From a virus (Duplodnaviria > Caudoviricetes), in the IMG/VR virus record IMGVR_UViG_3300021256_000062, positions 64,001-128,000 of that record: a DNA stretch of 64,000 nt. One strand, 5' to 3'. Positions within the stretch are counted from its first letter, which is position 1. The number at the start of each line of letters is the position of its first letter. Made by a program: the position numbers and the translations under genes. Shown here piece after piece: positions 33,876 through 39,989 of the stretch. A model generated the notes under the pieces. That model was not told where the DNA came from and made no database searches. It saw nothing but the letters and a program-made list of their open reading frames with translations.

Positions 33876-33949
33876 TGGCAGGGGCGGAGAGATTCGAACT
33901 CCCGTTGATGGTGTTGGAGACCATAGTCCTACCACTGAACGACACCCCT
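33876..33949 (-). tRNA. tRNA-Trp(CCA)
   Basis: Cloverleaf; loop CTCCAAC; encoded CCA. Confidence 0.92.
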
Positions 33950-33950
33950 A

Positions 33951-34330
33951 TGGTGGAGATGAGGGGAATTGAACCCCTGTATTGAAATCAGTCCATTTGA
34001 CTTTCTACATATTATCTTATTTATGTCCTCGTACAAATTACATCATCAGTAAATAAGCAAATTAGAAATGTAATTCAATTAGTTTCTATGGTCATTTCGA
34101 TTTCCTTTCGACTACTAATAAATGCAAAGTTCATCTACCCCTATATCGATTAACTACTAATTAGTATAGGTATCCTAATTTTCGTTTCCTAATTTATCTA
34201 ATTAGGCAAATGCATATGCTCTAGGAGCATTGTTTAAAGTTGCGGTTATTTAAACCTCGACGTTGATAACCCAGTCTACTGGATATGCTTATCATCTTTC
34301 ATAACTCCAAGCGAATCCATAAACATCCCC
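33951..34330 (-). ncRNA. ssrA: tmRNA, tag (A)TLNNAPRAYAFA*
   Basis: GGGGATG 5' end; T-arm and CATCTCCACCA 3' end; ATAACC-GCA resume site; tag ORF 34243-34202. Confidence 0.92.
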
Positions 34331-34343
34331 ATATTTAATTTAT

Positions 34344-34418
34344 TGGCGGGTCCTGAGAGATTCGAACTCCCCTATGGCAGCTTAACAGGCTGCTGCCCAA
34401 CCACTAGGCCAAGGACCC
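34344..34418 (-). tRNA. tRNA-Asn(GTT)
   Basis: Cloverleaf; loop CTGTTAA. Confidence 0.9.
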
Positions 34419-34835
34419 TTTTAATATATTATCAATTAAATAATCTTTTTCATACTTAATATTTGATTTTTGACCATTTTTTGGGTTATCATATCTAATA
34501 TTAAGTCCACTTGTAGGTGCATCATCAATACTGATTAATAAAATAACATCTCTTGTTACATTATAACAAGCGAAATAATCAATTTCAGTAGCATTATAAA
34601 TATGTCTAACACCTTTTGTACAATGAAGAGTTGATGATACTAAACTAAATTTCATAACTCCATTCTCAGCTTTAACTGATGTTTTAACTTGGATTTTATT
34701 TAATTTACCATTAAATTCTGCAATTAAGTCAGCCTTTTCATTATCACCGAAAGGTACATAAACAGGTATACCTAACTCCACAAATTTACATAATACTTTA
34801 GCCTCTCCAATATTCCCTATTGACTTACTATTCAT
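34404..34835 (-). CDS. free-standing PD-(D/E)XK homing-type endonuclease (I-Ssp6803I-like family)
   Basis: GNIGEAKV...PFGDNEKADLI...KIQVKTS...IDYFACY; start revised to MNSKS. Confidence 0.8.
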   Translation of the reverse strand: MNSKSIGNIGEAKVLCKFVELGIPVYVPFGDNEKADLIAEFNGKLNKIQVKTSVKAENGVMKFSLVSSTLHCTKGVRHIYNATEIDYFACYNVTRDVILLISIDDAPTSGLNIRYDNPKNGQKSNIKYEKDYLIDNILKGSLA

Positions 34836-34855
34836 AATGTTACTCCTAATTATAA

Positions 34856-34932
34856 TGGTTCCACCTAGCGGACTCGAACCGCTCATCTACCGCGTGAAAG
34901 GCGGGTGTCTTAACCAACTCGACTAAGGTGGA
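34856..34932 (-). tRNA. tRNA-Glu(TTC)
   Basis: Cloverleaf; loop CTTTCAC. Confidence 0.9.
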
Positions 34933-34970
34933 ATATACTGATTATCTTTTACAATAATCAAAAATATTAA

Positions 34971-35046
34971 TGGTGGACAGGCTTGGAATCGAACCAAGAT
35001 ATCTAGTTCTTCAGACTAGCGCACAGACCACATATGCCATCTGTCC
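34971..35046 (-). tRNA. tRNA-Phe(GAA)
   Basis: Cloverleaf; loop CTGAAGA. Confidence 0.88.
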
Positions 35047-35047
35047 A

Positions 35048-35124
35048 TGGTCTCCTAAATTGGATTTGAACCAATACTTTGTAAGGTTTGAGCTTACTAC
35101 CTCTTCCAATTGGGTTATTAGGAG
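35048..35124 (-). tRNA. tRNA-Leu(CAA), short variable loop
   Basis: GTAAG CTCAAAC CTTAC. Confidence 0.85.
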
Positions 35125-35130
35125 TTGTAA

Positions 35131-35206
35131 TGGAGGTCTCTCTCGGATTTGAACCGAGGTTCATGGTGTTGCAGACCATTGCCTTAATCCACTTGGCTAA
35201 GAGACC
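35131..35206 (-). tRNA. tRNA-Cys(GCA)
   Basis: Cloverleaf; U73. Confidence 0.92.
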
Positions 35207-35211
35207 TATAT

Positions 35212-35288
35212 TGGTGGACCCTACAGGACTTGAACCTGTGACAACTCGGTTATGAGCCGAGAGTTCTAACCAACTGAACTAAAGGTCC
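35212..35288 (-). tRNA. tRNA-Ile2(CAT), lysidine type (or elongator Met)
   Basis: GGACCTT acceptor and CGG CTCATAA CCG resemble Firmicutes Ile2. Confidence 0.8.
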
Positions 35289-35294
35289 ATTTAC

Positions 35295-35363
35295 TAGATA
35301 CATATTATAATCGGACAAATTTTCAGTTCGTAGATTTTAATAGTAATTTGCTGTTAGTATCTA
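35295..35363 (-). ncRNA. ACAGCAA-stem RNA copy 2, carrying a Phe(GAA) anticodon stem-loop
   Basis: TAGATAC-TAACAGCAA...ACGAA CTGAAAA TTTGT...GTATCTA. Confidence 0.7.
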
Positions 35364-35603
35364 AATGTTCCTAATATTCTTTTAATGATGTATGATAGAT
35401 TGCAACACAATTGATGATTTATTTTTGCAAGTCACTTTCTCTATCAATTACTGATACACAATCCTTCATCATACATCCTGCATATTTTTAAATAATTTTC
35501 TTCATTGTAGTTGTTCTTTTAAATATTTATAAATTATTTGCAGTTCGTGACTTAATGTGATTTTGTTTAAAATTGTTCACCAACAACTTTTCATTATTAA
35601 ATA

Positions 35604-35679
35604 TGGTGAGTCCGACGAGGTTCGAACTCGTGACCCCATGATTAAAAGTCATGTGCTCTACCAGCTGAGCTACGGACTC
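35604..35679 (-). tRNA. tRNA-Lys(TTT)
   Basis: Cloverleaf; CATGA CTTTTAA TCATG. Confidence 0.93.
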
Positions 35680-35683
35680 ATCT

Positions 35684-35760
35684 TGGCACACCGTAAGAGA
35701 TTCGAACTCCTAACTTATCGCTTAGAAGGCGATTACTCTAATCCGTTGAGTTAACGGTGT
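35684..35760 (-). tRNA. tRNA-Arg(TCT)
   Basis: Cloverleaf; loop CTTCTAA. Confidence 0.92.
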
Positions 35761-35771
35761 ATTCACATATT

Positions 35772-35800
35772 ATTATACAACATATTTATTTAATTGTCAA
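35772..35800 (-). promoter_or_regulatory. sigma70-type promoter for a tRNA block
   Basis: TTGACA-17-TATAAT. Confidence 0.85.
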
Positions 35801-35838
35801 GTAGGACTAATTTAATAGCCCTACTTTTATTATTACAA

Positions 35839-37062
35839 TTAAATTAAATAGTGAATATTCTTTCCATAACTTCTCTTAAATACTAAATATTTTATTCCTT
35901 TAGAGATTAGAATATTATTCTTACATCTATTGTAATTATCCTTATAAGTTGTTACAGCATTCTTATATTCATCTTCATTCTCAAAATCACATCTATCTGG
36001 TTGATAGATTGATTCTTTACGTAATTCACTTGAAACCAATTCATCATAGTCTATATGTAAATCATTAGAATTAATGATATTTAACATCAACTTTGTGTCA
36101 AACTGAATATCTTGTGTATTAAATCTTATATAGTAACCATCGTAATCATAACAAGCATCTTGTTCACTAAATATATCTAGTCTTAATTTTGAAGTTGTTG
36201 TTTGTGTACCATCATTTAATATTGCATAAACATTGTAATAAACAGGTTCAATATTCACAATATTTAAATCTTTAATGGCTTCTTCAAATGGTATTCCTTG
36301 AGATAATTCAAATGATATTGCTCTTAAACAATCATAGTTTATATCAACTTTATTTGCGAAATTAATTACTTTAGATATTTCACCATAATATTTAGGTTCT
36401 AATTTATCTTCCATATATTCTCTAATTTCATCAGCTGTAGGATAATCAAATCTAAAATGATAATGAAATCTACCAGGTCTATTGATTAAGAAATCATTTA
36501 AACCATTTAAATCATTACATGTTACTACAAATAATTTCTTACTATTTGCAAGACCATCAAATAAAGTTAATAATGTAGTTTGGGAACTTGATGATGAGCC
36601 ATCTCTATCTTCATCTGTAAATTTCAAATTACCTCTACCACTTTGAGCTTGTGCAAAAGTTTTATCAAATTCATCAAATAAAACTACACACTCTTGTTCA
36701 ATTTCAGTTAGGTAATCAGCTATACCTGGGATATACTTATTAACAACTATAACAGGTAAGTTTTCCTCTAAAGATTTTTTTGCAATTAATTTTGCACAAA
36801 TTGATTTTCCTATTCCCTTATCTCCTGATAAAATAACACCAAGATTTCTGTTCATAAGTTTATAGGCATTTAATACCTTATTTACTTTAGATAAATGTGG
36901 ACCATAAATCTTTTCATTAACATCAATCATTGGATAAAGTTGTAAGAAAAATCCAGATAATGGAGAGAATTCTACAGTATAACACTTATTAGGTAATACA
37001 TCATAAGTTCTCAAATCATCATCATAAATTCTGTAAATATTTCCTGTATTTACAATTTTCAA
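35839..37062 (-). CDS. AAA+ ATPase
   Basis: Walker A GDKGIGKS, Walker B LFDEFDK, SRH INRPGRF. Confidence 0.9.
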   Translation of the reverse strand: MKIVNTGNIYRIYDDDLRTYDVLPNKCYTVEFSPLSGFFLQLYPMIDVNEKIYGPHLSKVNKVLNAYKLMNRNLGVILSGDKGIGKSICAKLIAKKSLEENLPVIVVNKYIPGIADYLTEIEQECVVLFDEFDKTFAQAQSGRGNLKFTDEDRDGSSSSSQTTLLTLFDGLANSKKLFVVTCNDLNGLNDFLINRPGRFHYHFRFDYPTADEIREYMEDKLEPKYYGEISKVINFANKVDINYDCLRAISFELSQGIPFEEAIKDLNIVNIEPVYYNVYAILNDGTQTTTSKLRLDIFSEQDACYDYDGYYIRFNTQDIQFDTKLMLNIINSNDLHIDYDELVSSELRKESIYQPDRCDFENEDEYKNAVTTYKDNYNRCKNNILISKGIKYLVFKRSYGKNIHYLI

Positions 37063-37085
37063 TTAAATCACCCTTTCATTTTTTA

Positions 37086-37162
37086 TGGTGCCATCTCTGG
37101 GATTCGAACCCAGACTTAAGGGCTTTTAAGACCCTTGCCTCTGCCAATTGGGCTAAGGTGGC
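37086..37162 (-). tRNA. tRNA-Leu(TAA), short variable loop
   Basis: AGGGT CTTAAAA GCCCT. Confidence 0.85.
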
Positions 37163-37168
37163 ATTTAT

Positions 37169-37245
37169 TGGTTCGCCAAAGTGGATTTGAACCACTGACC
37201 TCTCGATTATCGGTCGAGTGCTCTAACCAACTGAGCTACTGGCGA
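37169..37245 (-). tRNA. tRNA-Ile(GAT)
   Basis: Cloverleaf; loop CCGATAA (C33). Confidence 0.88.
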
Positions 37246-37248
37246 ATA

Positions 37249-37377
37249 TGGTACCCACAAAAGGACTTGCACCTAATACTGTATTGCGTTCATCTCGGTG
37301 GCCATCTCCAAGATTCATCCTCATCTCCTTATTTCAGTTTGCAACCATCCATAAATCAATGTGACTATAACGTGAGC
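37249..37377 (-). ncRNA. 129-nt tRNA-like RNA (acceptor stem, T-like arm and CCA; non-tRNA interior)
   Basis: GCTCACG.../TGTGGGT-A-CCA; AGG TGCAAGT CCT; internal ATCTTGG/CCGAGAT hairpin. Confidence 0.55.
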
Positions 37378-37391
37378 ATATATAAGTTTAA

Positions 37392-37481
37392 TGGCGGTGC
37401 GTGTAGGATTTGAACCTACGGGTGGAGAACCACCGCCGGTTTTCAAGACCGGTGCAATAAACCAGACTCTGCCAACGCACC
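37392..37481 (-). tRNA. tRNA-Ser(TGA)
   Basis: Long variable arm; loop CTTGAAA. Confidence 0.92.
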
Positions 37482-37488
37482 ATCTATT

Positions 37489-37564
37489 TGGCGACCCCAG
37501 TGAGACTTGAACTCACGACACCGGCGTGACAGGCCAGCATTATAACCAGCTTAACTATGAGGCC
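37489..37564 (-). tRNA. tRNA-Asp(GTC)
   Basis: Cloverleaf; loop CTGTCAC. Confidence 0.92.
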
Positions 37565-37620
37565 AAAAATAACTTGGTATCTTCCTAACCATGGCTTGTG
37601 TAGATACCAGAACCGTAACC

Positions 37621-37729
37621 TGGTGGATGAAGACAAGAATTTCACTTGCAAAGACCTTTAATTAACTAGTATACTGTATCAGTCACCATTGTTACAGAAT
37701 GGCTACTTTTTATAATTGTATATTCATCC
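37621..37729 (-). ncRNA. oversized atypical tRNA-Tyr(GTA)-like RNA
   Basis: GGATGAA/TTCATCC-A-CCA; CCATT CTGTAAC AATGG; ~35-nt variable region; T loop TGAAATT. Confidence 0.6.
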
Positions 37730-37750
37730 ATTTACTAAATATTAAATTAA

Positions 37751-37827
37751 TGGTCGGAGTAGCAGGATTCGAACCTGCGACGTCTAGTTCCCAAAACTAG
37801 TGACCTAACCAGCTGGCCTATACCCCG
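37751..37827 (-). tRNA. tRNA-Pro(TGG)
   Basis: Cloverleaf; loop TTTGGGA. Confidence 0.92.
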
Positions 37828-38036
37828 ATATTATAAAGATTTCCCTGTTTTATATCTCTATCAATCCCAATGACTCATACTACATTTTCCGAAATTTTAT
37901 AAACACTCTCATCTAAACTACTACCAATGCTTAATGGTTCAGTTGTAACGTACTCTCAACGTTATATTACCAACTATATCTGTCTTTATCTTTTTCAACC
38001 CATATTTTACAGCCAGGACTATAGCTATTTAATTAT

Positions 38037-38122
38037 TGGTGGTTGGGGTAGGATTCGAACCTACGTACCGATTAAGGAACAGATTTACAGTCTGTCGCGT
38101 TTAACCACTTCGCTACCCAACC
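38037..38122 (-). tRNA. tRNA-Tyr(GTA)
   Basis: Long variable arm; loop CTGTAAA. Confidence 0.92.
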
Positions 38123-38135
38123 ATATTATTTATTT

Positions 38136-38212
38136 TGGTGTGATGTGGGAGATTTGAACTCCCGACCCCTTGAGCCACAATCAAGTGTTCTACCAACTGA
38201 ACTAACACCACC
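38136..38212 (-). tRNA. tRNA-His(GTG)
   Basis: Loop TTGTGGC; encoded G-1; A73. Confidence 0.88.
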
Positions 38213-38217
38213 ATGTA

Positions 38218-38293
38218 TGGTGCAGTATACAGGACTTGAACCTATAACCTTTAGTTTGTAAGACTAACACTCTCCCAATTGAGTTAATACTGC
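38218..38293 (-). tRNA. tRNA-Val(TAC)
   Basis: Cloverleaf; loop CTTACAA. Confidence 0.92.
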
Positions 38294-38297
38294 ATAT

Positions 38298-38372
38298 TGG
38301 CAGGACCGGAAGGAATCGAACCTTCATAATTCGGGTCAAAGCCGAATGCACTAACCGTTGTGCTACAGTCCT
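38298..38372 (-). tRNA. tRNA-Gln(TTG)
   Basis: Cloverleaf; loop CTTTGAC. Confidence 0.92.
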
Positions 38373-38379
38373 ATAACTA

Positions 38380-38470
38380 TGGCGGTTGCTGAGGGACTTG
38401 AACCCCCGCGGGCTTTCACACCCCTATCGCGTTAGCAATGCGACCTCTTCACCAACTTGAGTAAGCAACC
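38380..38470 (-). tRNA. tRNA-Ser(GCT)
   Basis: Long variable arm; loop TTGCTAA. Confidence 0.92.
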
Positions 38471-38479
38471 ATCAAATAT

Positions 38480-38508
38480 ATTATACAATTATTTGTTTTA
38501 AATGTCAA
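38480..38508 (-). promoter_or_regulatory. sigma70-type promoter for a tRNA block
   Basis: TTGACA-17-TATAAT. Confidence 0.85.
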
Positions 38509-38529
38509 CTTTTTTATATTATTTTTTTT

Positions 38530-38605
38530 TGGCACATCCAGATGGATTCGAACCATCAATACCAGGTTCGTAGCCTGGTGGTTTAATCCATTAGCCTATG
38601 GATGT
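38530..38605 (-). tRNA. tRNA-Arg(ACG)
   Basis: CCAGG CTACGAA CCTGG. Confidence 0.9.
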
Positions 38606-38609
38606 ATAG

Positions 38610-38684
38610 TGGTACCACCTACCAGACTTGAACTGATATTATTCGGGTATGAACCGAACTTCCTAACCATTGAAAGAAAGTGGC
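38610..38684 (-). tRNA. tRNA-Met(CAT), elongator (divergent)
   Basis: TTCGG TTCATAC CCGAA. Confidence 0.8.
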
Positions 38685-38741
38685 ATAAAAAATATCAGTT
38701 TTCTTTTTAATTAGTCCTCTAAAACTGATAAAACCTGAACT

Positions 38742-38818
<77 letters not shown>

Positions 38819-38826
38819 ATATAAGT

Positions 38827-38904
38827 AATCAAACTCAATTGTGGAGGTGATTTAAGGTGAATGTTTTTTGGAGGAAAAAAATATTATTTCAATTGAGTTT
38901 GATT
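38827..38904 (-). ncRNA. hairpin RNA with three anti-Shine-Dalgarno motifs in its loop
   Basis: Perfect 15-bp stem AATCAAACTCAATTG/CAATTGAGTTTGATT; loop contains CCTCC, TCACCT and TCACCTCC. Confidence 0.55.
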
Positions 38905-38979
38905 TGGAGCGGATGATGGGAATCGAACCCACATATCCAGCTTGGAAGGCTGGAGTTCTAACCATTGAACTACATCCGC
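38905..38979 (-). tRNA. tRNA-Gly(TCC)
   Basis: Cloverleaf; loop CTTCCAA. Confidence 0.93.
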
Positions 38980-39018
38980 ATTTGAAGGTTTCAAGTCTTA
39001 TTATACCTACAACTTATT

Positions 39019-39095
39019 TGGTGGGGATGGAGGGAGTCGAACCCACACTGTCTAGTTTCTAAAACTAGTTCCTCTGCCAATTGGGATACATCCCC
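39019..39095 (-). tRNA. tRNA-Leu(TAG), short variable loop
   Basis: CTAGT TTTAGAA ACTAG. Confidence 0.85.
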
Positions 39096-39102
39096 AAAAT
39101 AC

Positions 39103-39219
39103 AAGACTCATTTATCATGGGTTTTGCAGGACTTGAACCTGCTACTTTCAAATTAGAAGTTTGACGCTCTACCAAATGAGCTAAAAATCCTAGAATGGAG
39201 TATTTGCAGTATGAGTCTT
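39103..39219 (-). ncRNA. ACAGCAA-stem RNA copy 3, enclosing a complete tRNA-Arg(TCT)-like cloverleaf (39118-39190)
   Basis: AAGACTC-ATACTGCAA...[GGATTTT...TCAAA CTTCTAA TTTGA...GCAGG TTCAAGT CCTGC AAAACCC]...GAGTCTT. Confidence 0.75.
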
Positions 39220-39295
<76 letters not shown>

Positions 39296-39448
39296 ATTTT
39301 AAGTGTTGATTTTCCTAGGTTCAACACTAGCTTATAAGCTATCCCACCCATCGGAAGGAGATAAGTCACCACTTTATCTTTCTTTCATTTATCAGATGAA
39401 CGCTTTATATCTATTATAACTGTTCTATAGTAACAGATATAAACTATA

Positions 39449-39524
39449 TGGTGGAGCTAGTCGGGTTCGAACCGACGACTTTCAACTTGCAAAGCTGACA
39501 CTCTCCCAACTGAGTTATAGCCCC
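39449..39524 (-). tRNA. tRNA-Ala(TGC)
   Basis: GGGGCTA acceptor with G3:U70; loop TTTGCAA. Confidence 0.93.
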
Positions 39525-39709: not shown

Positions 39710-39815
39710 AAGACACTTCTTTTTGCGTATACCATTTCGCCACTTAGCACATGCTGCTGAGATAGGATTCGAACCTATAATAATCTAAAAGATTAAGGTT
39801 TGCTGTATGTGTCTT
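39710..39815 (-). ncRNA. ACAGCAA-stem RNA copy 5, circularly permuted tRNA-like (YrlA-like topology)
   Basis: AAGACAC-ATACAGCAA...T arm ATAGG TTCGAAT CCTAT, loop-closed acceptor CTCAGCA GCATG TGCTAAG, D arm GCG AAATGGTATA CGC...GTGTCTT. Confidence 0.78.
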
Positions 39816-39849
39816 TATATCAGTAAAATTATTTATTTTATAAGTAATC

Positions 39850-39989
39850 AAGACATTCTTGTTGATTTTAAGTGTGATACCATTACACCACTCCCCTATA
39901 TAATTAAATATATGGCAGGGGAGGAATGGATTCGAACCATCATCACTGGAGTTGCAGTCCCTATCATTTAGAATTGCAGTAAATGTCTT
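39850..39989 (-). ncRNA. ACAGCAA-stem RNA copy 6, circularly permuted tRNA-Cys(GCA)-like
   Basis: AAGACAT-TTACTGCAA...GGA CTGCAAC TCC, T arm, CTCCCCT-G-CCA, AT linker, AGGGGAG, D arm...ATGTCTT. Confidence 0.78.

Follow-up and report, generated by a model that had tools for sequence, protein, structure and literature searches.

A putative Shine-Dalgarno-pairing hairpin RNA between tRNA-Gly and initiator tRNA-Met in the tRNA array of a sheep-rumen phage

RsaE/RoxS and the other Rsa sRNAs with UCCC motifs in Firmicutes expose several unpaired C-rich motifs that pair with the Shine-Dalgarno (SD) regions of many mRNAs. The spacers of tRNA operons are a second known source of regulatory RNAs, as illustrated by 3′ETS-leuZ of E. 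coli, which sponges Hfq-dependent sRNAs. The tRNA cluster of phage T4 likewise encodes extra stable RNAs (species 1 and 2, rnaC/rnaD), for which we know of no function and of no described anti-SD motifs. Hairpins may also arrive with mobile sequences, and the MITEs Correia, RUP and ERIC are multicopy elements with target-site duplications on their flanks. An exact copy of the 16S rRNA anti-SD sequence within a non-ribosomal RNA has been described in the P6 stem of OLE RNA, a 600-nt ribonucleoprotein RNA of Bacillota where the mimic forms a duplex with an SD-like strand (PMC12054373). A 2025 review of phage-derived sRNAs does not mention tRNA (PMC12197685), and our literature search found no phage RNA of the tRNA-spacer anti-SD kind. 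Here, we describe a hairpin of a rumen phage that is best classed with two of these known kinds, the C-rich anti-SD sRNAs and the RNAs derived from tRNA spacers.

The window analyzed is a stretch of 64,000 nt that corresponds to bases 64001–128000 of a 158,917-bp IMG/VR phage contig (94% complete, ~28% G+C), and pieces identical to this phage DNA come from sheep-rumen assemblies; the source study includes the samples behind SRR873596 and SRR873602 as well as ERZ28612970. The (−) strand holds 125 of the 127 ORFs of ≥120 aa. Since SD-like motifs (AGGAG, AAAGG, GGAGG or GAGGT) precede the starts of phage ORFs, the phage and its host appear to use Shine-Dalgarno initiation. All genes of the tRNA array lie on the (−) strand, and the RNA is therefore the reverse complement of the window. 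The array contains two perfect TTGACA-17-TATAAT promoters, at window positions 38480–38508 and 35772–35800 (both on the (−) strand), and thus consists of several transcription units; the hairpin belongs to the unit upstream of the first internal promoter. The hairpin region is organized as follows (window coordinates, in the direction of transcription after the first line):

33876–39524, (−) strand: array of 28 tRNA genes and a tmRNA gene (ARAGORN)
38905–38979, (−) strand: tRNA-Gly(UCC) with its CCA encoded (ARAGORN; Rfam tRNA, 75.4 bits)
38890–38904 (read from 38904 to 38890), (−) strand: 5′ arm of the stem, AAUCAAACUCAAUUG, part of a perfect 15-bp inverted repeat
38842–38889, (−) strand: loop of 48 nt, G-free and A/U-rich, predicted by folding to be fully unpaired
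38870–38874, (−) strand: motif 1, CCUCC, with U7 and A6 on its flanks
38855–38860, (−) strand: motif 2, UCACCU
38843–38851, (−) strand: motif 3, AUCACCUCC, a 9-nt match to the 16S rRNA 3′ tail that occurs once in the genome
38827–38841, (−) strand: 3′ arm of the stem, CAAUUGAGUUUGAUU, the perfect complement of the 5′ arm
38819–38826, (−) strand: 8-nt leader, ACUUAUAU, whose last six bases are TTATAT
38742–38818, (−) strand: tRNA-Met(CAU), initiator-type (ARAGORN)

This anatomy agrees with the original prediction, which had claimed a perfect 15-bp stem around a 48-nt A/U-rich loop (found on the (−) strand, at 38890–38904 and 38827–38841), three anti-SD motifs (all located in the loop, which reads AAAUAAUAUUUUUUUCCUCCAAAAAACAUUCACCUUAAAUCACCUCCA on the (−) strand) and a hairpin that abuts the CCA of tRNA-Gly and stands 8 nt ahead of tRNA-Met. 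The two tRNA genes lie on the same strand, 86 nt apart, which places the hairpin in the position of a transcribed spacer within a tRNA operon, and the 5′ arm begins one base past the CCA. The initiator type of the tRNA-Met is indicated by G29–G31:C39–C41 in the anticodon stem, A11:U24 and a weak U1–A72 pair. In the spacer between this gene and the other tRNA-Met gene (38685–38741, (−) strand) there is a further hairpin of 9 bp, composed of A/U pairs (AUCAGUUUU...AAAACUGAU), with an SD-like loop (AGAGGACUAAUUAAAAAG) and followed by AUUUUUUAU; it is weakly terminator-like.

Just downstream of the DUF2828 gene (39710–39989, (−) strand) lie tRNA-like pieces in permuted order, with the T arm and the acceptor 3′ strand with CCA preceding the acceptor 5′ strand and the D arm. 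The tag encoded by the phage tmRNA (33951–34330, (−) strand) ends in APRAYAFA and those of relatives L002, L005 and L008 in NAPRAYAFA, a YAFA ending being typical of Mollicutes-type tmRNA tags, and a tRNA with the anticodon UCA is present in relatives L005 and L139. Taken together, the tag and this tRNA hint at a Mollicutes-like rumen host, possibly one using code 4.

RNAfold predicted the hairpin with its loop wholly open, at a minimum free energy of −15.2 kcal/mol (z = −5.7), and none of 200 shuffles was as stable. When the 238-nt stretch from tRNA-Gly through tRNA-Met was folded whole, the hairpin was unchanged, two clean cloverleaves formed beside it and the loop was still unpaired. Both tRNAs are left intact by the putative insertion, and a single-stranded 8-nt leader is retained before tRNA-Met. 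The loop sits within a 53-nt G-free run that ranks second on the sense strand, among three runs of ≥48 nt. Because the loop lacks G, its C-rich motifs find no partner inside the RNA and are predicted to escape sequestration.

We then considered whether the motif pattern could be due to chance. The sense strand of the whole genome contains eight CCTCC and seven TCACCT, two of each falling here, and ATCACCTCC has a single genome occurrence counting both strands. The cluster of three anti-SD segments is the sole one on the sense strand, three segments were reached in 3 of 200 composition-preserving block shuffles, and a chance origin of the pattern is very unlikely. The content is unusual in either orientation, since no native ribosome-binding region of the phage carries three SD-like segments within 50 nt; the lone sense-strand cluster of three SD-like segments is a Gly-rich coding stretch. 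By itself, the stem is moderately unusual, given that the genome has two perfect 15-bp inverted repeats (loops ≤150 nt) and that block shuffles yield stems of up to 14 bp. The other repeat, AATAATGTTTACTAT with a 29-nt loop, is located at genome positions 129989–130047 (65989–66047 in window numbering, just outside the window). As the motif cluster goes beyond chance, a function as an anti-SD element or 16S-tail mimic stays plausible.

No Rfam 15 family covered the hairpin at E ≤ 1 in a scan of 7.5 kb, and a scan of 96 nt alone returned noise only (5–13 bits, E > 3). Intrinsic terminators are recognized by a short G+C-rich stem, a small loop and a 3′ U tract, and this class was rejected: the terminator scan was silent, 4 of the 15 stem pairs are G:C, the loop has 48 nt, and ACUUAUAU follows the stem. 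The likeness to RsaE/RoxS lies in the unpaired C-rich motifs set against G-rich SD regions, of which sRNAs of this type carry at least two and the predicted open loop would present three. In contrast to the hairpin, RsaE/RoxS are encoded on chromosomes, each gene having a promoter and a terminator of its own, show conservation across genera and use CCCC/UCCC motifs, not a 9-nt 16S-tail copy; the hairpin has no Rfam match to them and lies inside a tRNA polycistron with no terminator. With 3′ETS-leuZ it shares the location in a transcribed tRNA-operon spacer, and with both 3′ETS-leuZ and the T4 RNAs the putative origin as a small RNA cut from a polycistronic tRNA precursor by tRNA-processing nucleases, but 3′ETS-leuZ targets sRNAs and not SD sequences. 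The P6 stem of OLE RNA is alike in holding an exact 16S anti-SD copy outside the ribosome and differs in that its copy is duplexed within a large RNA, whereas the rumen phage has single-stranded copies in the loop of a small hairpin (PMC12054373). Finally, the hairpin resembles a MITE as a short insert with terminal inverted repeats (here, the perfect 15-bp arms) that would form a hairpin upon transcription. Unlike a MITE, it has no second copy in the phage, its arm pattern yielded no related match in IMG/VR or GTDB, and its flanks, ...GCUCCA and ACUUAUAU..., show no direct repeat. With neither a target-site duplication nor a second copy, the hallmarks of a MITE are missing.

The closest precedent comes from another phage lineage. 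In Erwinia phage phiEa21-4 (NC_011811.1, 22974–23200; L223:1344–1570), the 227-nt spacer between tRNA-Asp and tRNA-Ser contains, on the tRNA strand, the hairpin CUUAAACGU-UUCACCUCCUU-GCGUUUAAG. This spacer is found in 36 phage records (Kolesnikvirus-type) and exists in two versions, the second of which (Salmonella phage ST-3 and Erwinia phage Coenus; L227:101–324 and L228:101–326) has the stem ACAGUG/CACUGU and the loop UUCCCUCCUU. The stem thus covaries (AAACG/CGUUU versus ACAGUG/CACUGU) and the loop keeps CCUCCUU, a pattern that shows the display of a 16S-tail sequence in a tRNA-array spacer to be under selection in at least one further lineage of phages. An SD-led micro-ORF of nine codons is located upstream within the same spacer. 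Both hairpins occupy a tRNA-array spacer, are encoded on the tRNA strand and carry a 16S-tail sequence in the loop, but they differ in architecture: the Kolesnikvirus hairpin has a 9-bp stem, an 11-nt loop and one motif within a structured 227-nt spacer, as opposed to 15 bp, 48 nt and three motifs in the rumen phage. Moreover, the former belongs to phages of Gram-negative hosts and is kept in 36 records, whereas the latter is an orphan, and BLAST against 50,697 phage records revealed no sequence homology between them; their likeness is one of function and style. Our literature search found no publication on the Kolesnikvirus hairpin. Its covariation raises the prior for a function of the rumen-phage hairpin. 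A further class, the ACNGCAA clamp (a closing stem of 6–7 bp followed by unpaired WWAC(A/U/C)GCAA), was rejected for the rumen-phage hairpin: ACNGCAA is absent throughout 38819–38904, and the 5′ arm runs on into AAAUAAUAUUUU.

To find related loci, we used the neighboring DUF2828/DUF7788 protein, which has thousands of homologues; the loci compared were L002–L010 and L139, at 74–80% identity, and 80 IMG/VR loci at 40–74% identity. The best relative found through this protein (~80% identity) has a rearranged tRNA array. Through the AAA ATPase encoded inside the array, the next relative is 56% identical, and the 100% matches represent this phage again, sampled in the same sheep-rumen study. The hairpin was found in none of the ~90 related loci (closest, ~80% protein identity), no comparable unpaired anti-SD cluster was present in any of the 85 distinct sense-strand tRNA-tRNA spacers of 40–200 nt in related loci, and a BLAST search with the hairpin gave no match in five related phage records taken whole. 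Searches of IMG/VR with exact and gapped motif patterns returned no homologue, a 19-base gapped pattern hit coding sequences or tandem repeats only (none near a tRNA), and the arm pattern had no match there and two in 185,579 GTDB species genomes, both unrelated Bacteroidota palindromes. Similarly, BLAST yielded chance matches only in the 50,697 INPHARED phage records (E ≥ 3) and in PLSDB plasmids, and a k-mer search of 2.9 Mb of retrieved loci recovered nothing beyond copies of this phage. A metagenome scan of JGI contigs revealed an identical copy of the same phage and two chance matches in coding DNA.

By these sequence searches, the hairpin is an orphan, single-genome element. No copies were found other than identical ones from the same sheep-rumen phage, so neither covariation nor purifying selection can be demonstrated. 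The original prediction had called for a search for homologues in other phage tRNA arrays and staked its refutation on loop motifs that are not conserved in relatives; the absence of these motifs from ~90 loci, at protein identities of up to about 80%, counts weakly against it.

The relatives do suggest how the hairpin arose. In five distant relatives (L177, L181, L182, L186 and L187), the spacer between tRNA-Gly(tcc) and tRNA-Met is TTATAT, 6 nt in length, and in a sixth (L195) it has 9 nt. Given the TTATAT-only spacer in these phages and the same end of the spacer here, the hairpin looks like an 80-nt insertion, and the simplest reading would be that a piece of 80 nt (the 78-nt hairpin plus AC) was inserted directly past the CCA. 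The perfect stem is compatible with an insertion that is recent and possibly neutral. What follows tRNA-Gly(tcc) in the closest relatives is a tyrosine-rich mini-ORF led by an SD (MKEDYYYYYNLIFLNRGVVR / MESDYSYYYNLIIKFRGVVR; L005:11544–11618, L008:11438–11602 and L139:6489–6650); it extends into the region of the tRNA-Tyr gene and resembles a leader peptide of Tyr codons placed before tRNA-Tyr.

Our preferred reading, which we hold tentatively, is that the hairpin is an RNA derived from the tRNA precursor that pairs with SD sequences. As a lineage-specific 80-nt insert in the spacer between tRNA-Gly(UCC) and the initiator tRNA-Met, it would be transcribed within the phage tRNA precursor. RNase P cleaves at the 5′ end of tRNAs, and its cut at the 5′ end of tRNA-Met (38818/38819) would set the 3′ end of the RNA, 8 nt past the stem. 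On the other side, an encoded CCA inhibits RNase Z as an anti-determinant and a 15-bp stem should stall 3′ exonucleases, from which we infer that release of the RNA from tRNA-Gly would take another endonuclease cut, either at the stem or within it; alternatively, tRNA-Gly may retain the hairpin as a 3′ extension. No cleavage signal for this step is evident. The prediction that tRNA processing releases the hairpin is therefore supported on one side only: RNase P would form the 3′ end, and the 5′ side, which abuts the CCA, would require the additional cut. The product would be an RNA of ~80–86 nt in which the long stem keeps the G-free loop open and displays three copies of 16S 3′-tail sequence. 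This loop could pair with SD sequences of the GGAGG, AGGUGA and GGAGGUGAU types in competition with 30S subunits, which would make the RNA a multivalent mask or sponge for SD sequences, produced alongside the phage tRNAs. We infer its transcription, processing and accumulation, as well as an effect on translation.

Duplex predictions bear on what such an RNA could select. Across the 17 nt upstream of 182 phage ORF starts, the loop reached a mean of −8.9 kcal/mol, compared with −9.5 for the 16S tail, and its duplexes were at −8 kcal/mol or better at 112 of the 182 ORFs. Strong binders of the loop are scattered across the whole genome, a spread that speaks against selective masking of one gene class. 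The phage genome contains no long specific antisense target; the longest matches, of 10–12 nt, are at chance level and include the ribosome-binding site of the AAA ATPase gene at 37072. Since the loop is predicted to pair with the ribosome-binding sites of the phage about as well as the 16S tail does, the selective host shut-off proposed originally is not favored: phage sites would be masked as readily as those of the host. If functional, the hairpin would thus probably be a generic multivalent competitor for SD sequences and not a host-specific shut-off device or a regulator of one gene. One genome cannot carry a functional claim.

The main rival is a neutral, recent insertion, which we consider somewhat unlikely. 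Here, a fragment ending in inverted repeats (MITE-like or produced by template switching) would have entered the junction of the tRNA-Gly CCA with the old TTATAT spacer, its "anti-SD" motifs would stem from a ribosome-binding region (GGAGGTGATTTAAG-GTG...) that lies in the opposite orientation and so reads as its reverse complement, and the hairpin would be merely tolerated. Several observations are consistent with this idea. TTATAT alone links the two tRNAs in the distant relatives and ends the spacer here, no relative has the hairpin, the perfect 15-bp terminal inverted repeat suggests recency, and the (+) strand reads as a canonical SD followed by a GTG start. In addition, the sense strand has 157 C-free runs of ≥48 nt; with such runs this common, an inverted fragment of sense type would look G-free. 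Stems of 12–14 bp also occur by chance in this AT-rich genome. However, the arms have no second copy in the phage, IMG/VR or GTDB (the two unrelated Bacteroidota palindromes aside), the insertion lacks a target-site duplication, and the phage offers no native ribosome-binding region with three SD-like segments in 50 nt, which leaves the content unusual on the other strand as well.

It is quite unlikely, in our estimate, that the loop instead serves as a decoy, offering copies of the 16S tail to a sequence-specific endoribonuclease (for example of MazF type, cutting at C^ACCU or U^CCUU) or a protein that binds the tail (for example bS21), with ribosome protection or titration of the factor as the effect and no binding of mRNA. 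The C^ACCU immediately ahead of the anti-SD in 16S rRNA is a cleavage site of MazF-mt11 (PMC12274833), and the loop contains two CACCU sites. The anti-SD mimic of OLE RNA binds bS21 (PMC12054373), and the phage encodes a borderline bS21-like ORF of 77 aa, outside the window (L219:1486–1719, (−) strand; genome 19038–19271). This ORF scored 26.3 bits against Pfam PF01165 (cut-off, 27; E = 6e-6), its best PDB matches are chloroplast bS21, and IMG/VR contains no close relative of its S21-like product. Five relatives lack the ORF and also lack the hairpin (four searched over the whole record and the fifth in its 21-kb locus only), yet the co-occurrence of the S21-like gene and the hairpin rests on one genome, and the OLE RNA anti-SD is duplexed with an SD mimic rather than single-stranded. 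The 9-nt match AUCACCUCC exceeds the length that typical SD pairing needs, which would fit a decoy, whereas real 16S tails have a UUU after CCUCC that is missing from the loop. Orphan status is a weakness that the decoy shares with the SD-pairing reading.

We see a slim chance that the stem is what matters, as a processing site of RNase III or Mini-III type or as a folding insulator between tRNA-Gly and the initiator tRNA, the loop being incidental. The stem makes an exact bridge between the CCA of tRNA-Gly and the leader of tRNA-Met, each of the three modules folds on its own, and a hairpin set against an encoded CCA would, from what is known of tRNA 3′ maturation, call for an endonucleolytic step. 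Nevertheless, in relatives a 6-nt spacer suffices for maturation of this tRNA pair, so no processing element is needed; moreover, 15 bp is short for RNase III, our search found no RNase III gene in the phage, and the G-free loop with its triple motif is left unexplained. Very improbable is an SD-led micro-ORF on the (+) strand, antisense to the tRNA array (GTG at 38857, 19 codons, MNVFWRKKILFQLSLIWSG, or ATG at 38861, 11 codons), for although GGAGGTGAT lies 9 nt ahead of the GTG and the (+) strand folds stably too (−21.2 kcal/mol), only 2 of the 127 ORFs of ≥120 aa are on that strand, no convincing (+) strand promoter was found nearby, the reading frame would enter tRNA-Gly antisense, and the start region is buried in the (+) strand fold.

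Returning to the SD-pairing reading, a broader proposal, fairly unlikely in its full extent, is that spacer RNAs displaying anti-SD sequences have arisen repeatedly and independently in phage tRNA arrays, with three motifs in the rumen phage and one in Kolesnikvirus. These would form an undescribed class of translation-initiation modulators, and the rumen-phage RNA would perhaps act with the phage bS21-like protein and the initiator tRNA to bias the choice of messages. If the hairpin RNA is made and binds SD sequences, it would be a very compact means of interfering with translation initiation, namely a protein-free, multivalent competitor of the 16S tail that is co-transcribed with tRNAs. Even if it is merely a neutral insertion, it still shows a route by which new hairpin RNAs may enter tRNA precursors. 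Together with the Kolesnikvirus hairpin, it would raise the directly testable question of whether the seemingly "empty" spacers of phage tRNA arrays are hiding places of regulatory RNAs.
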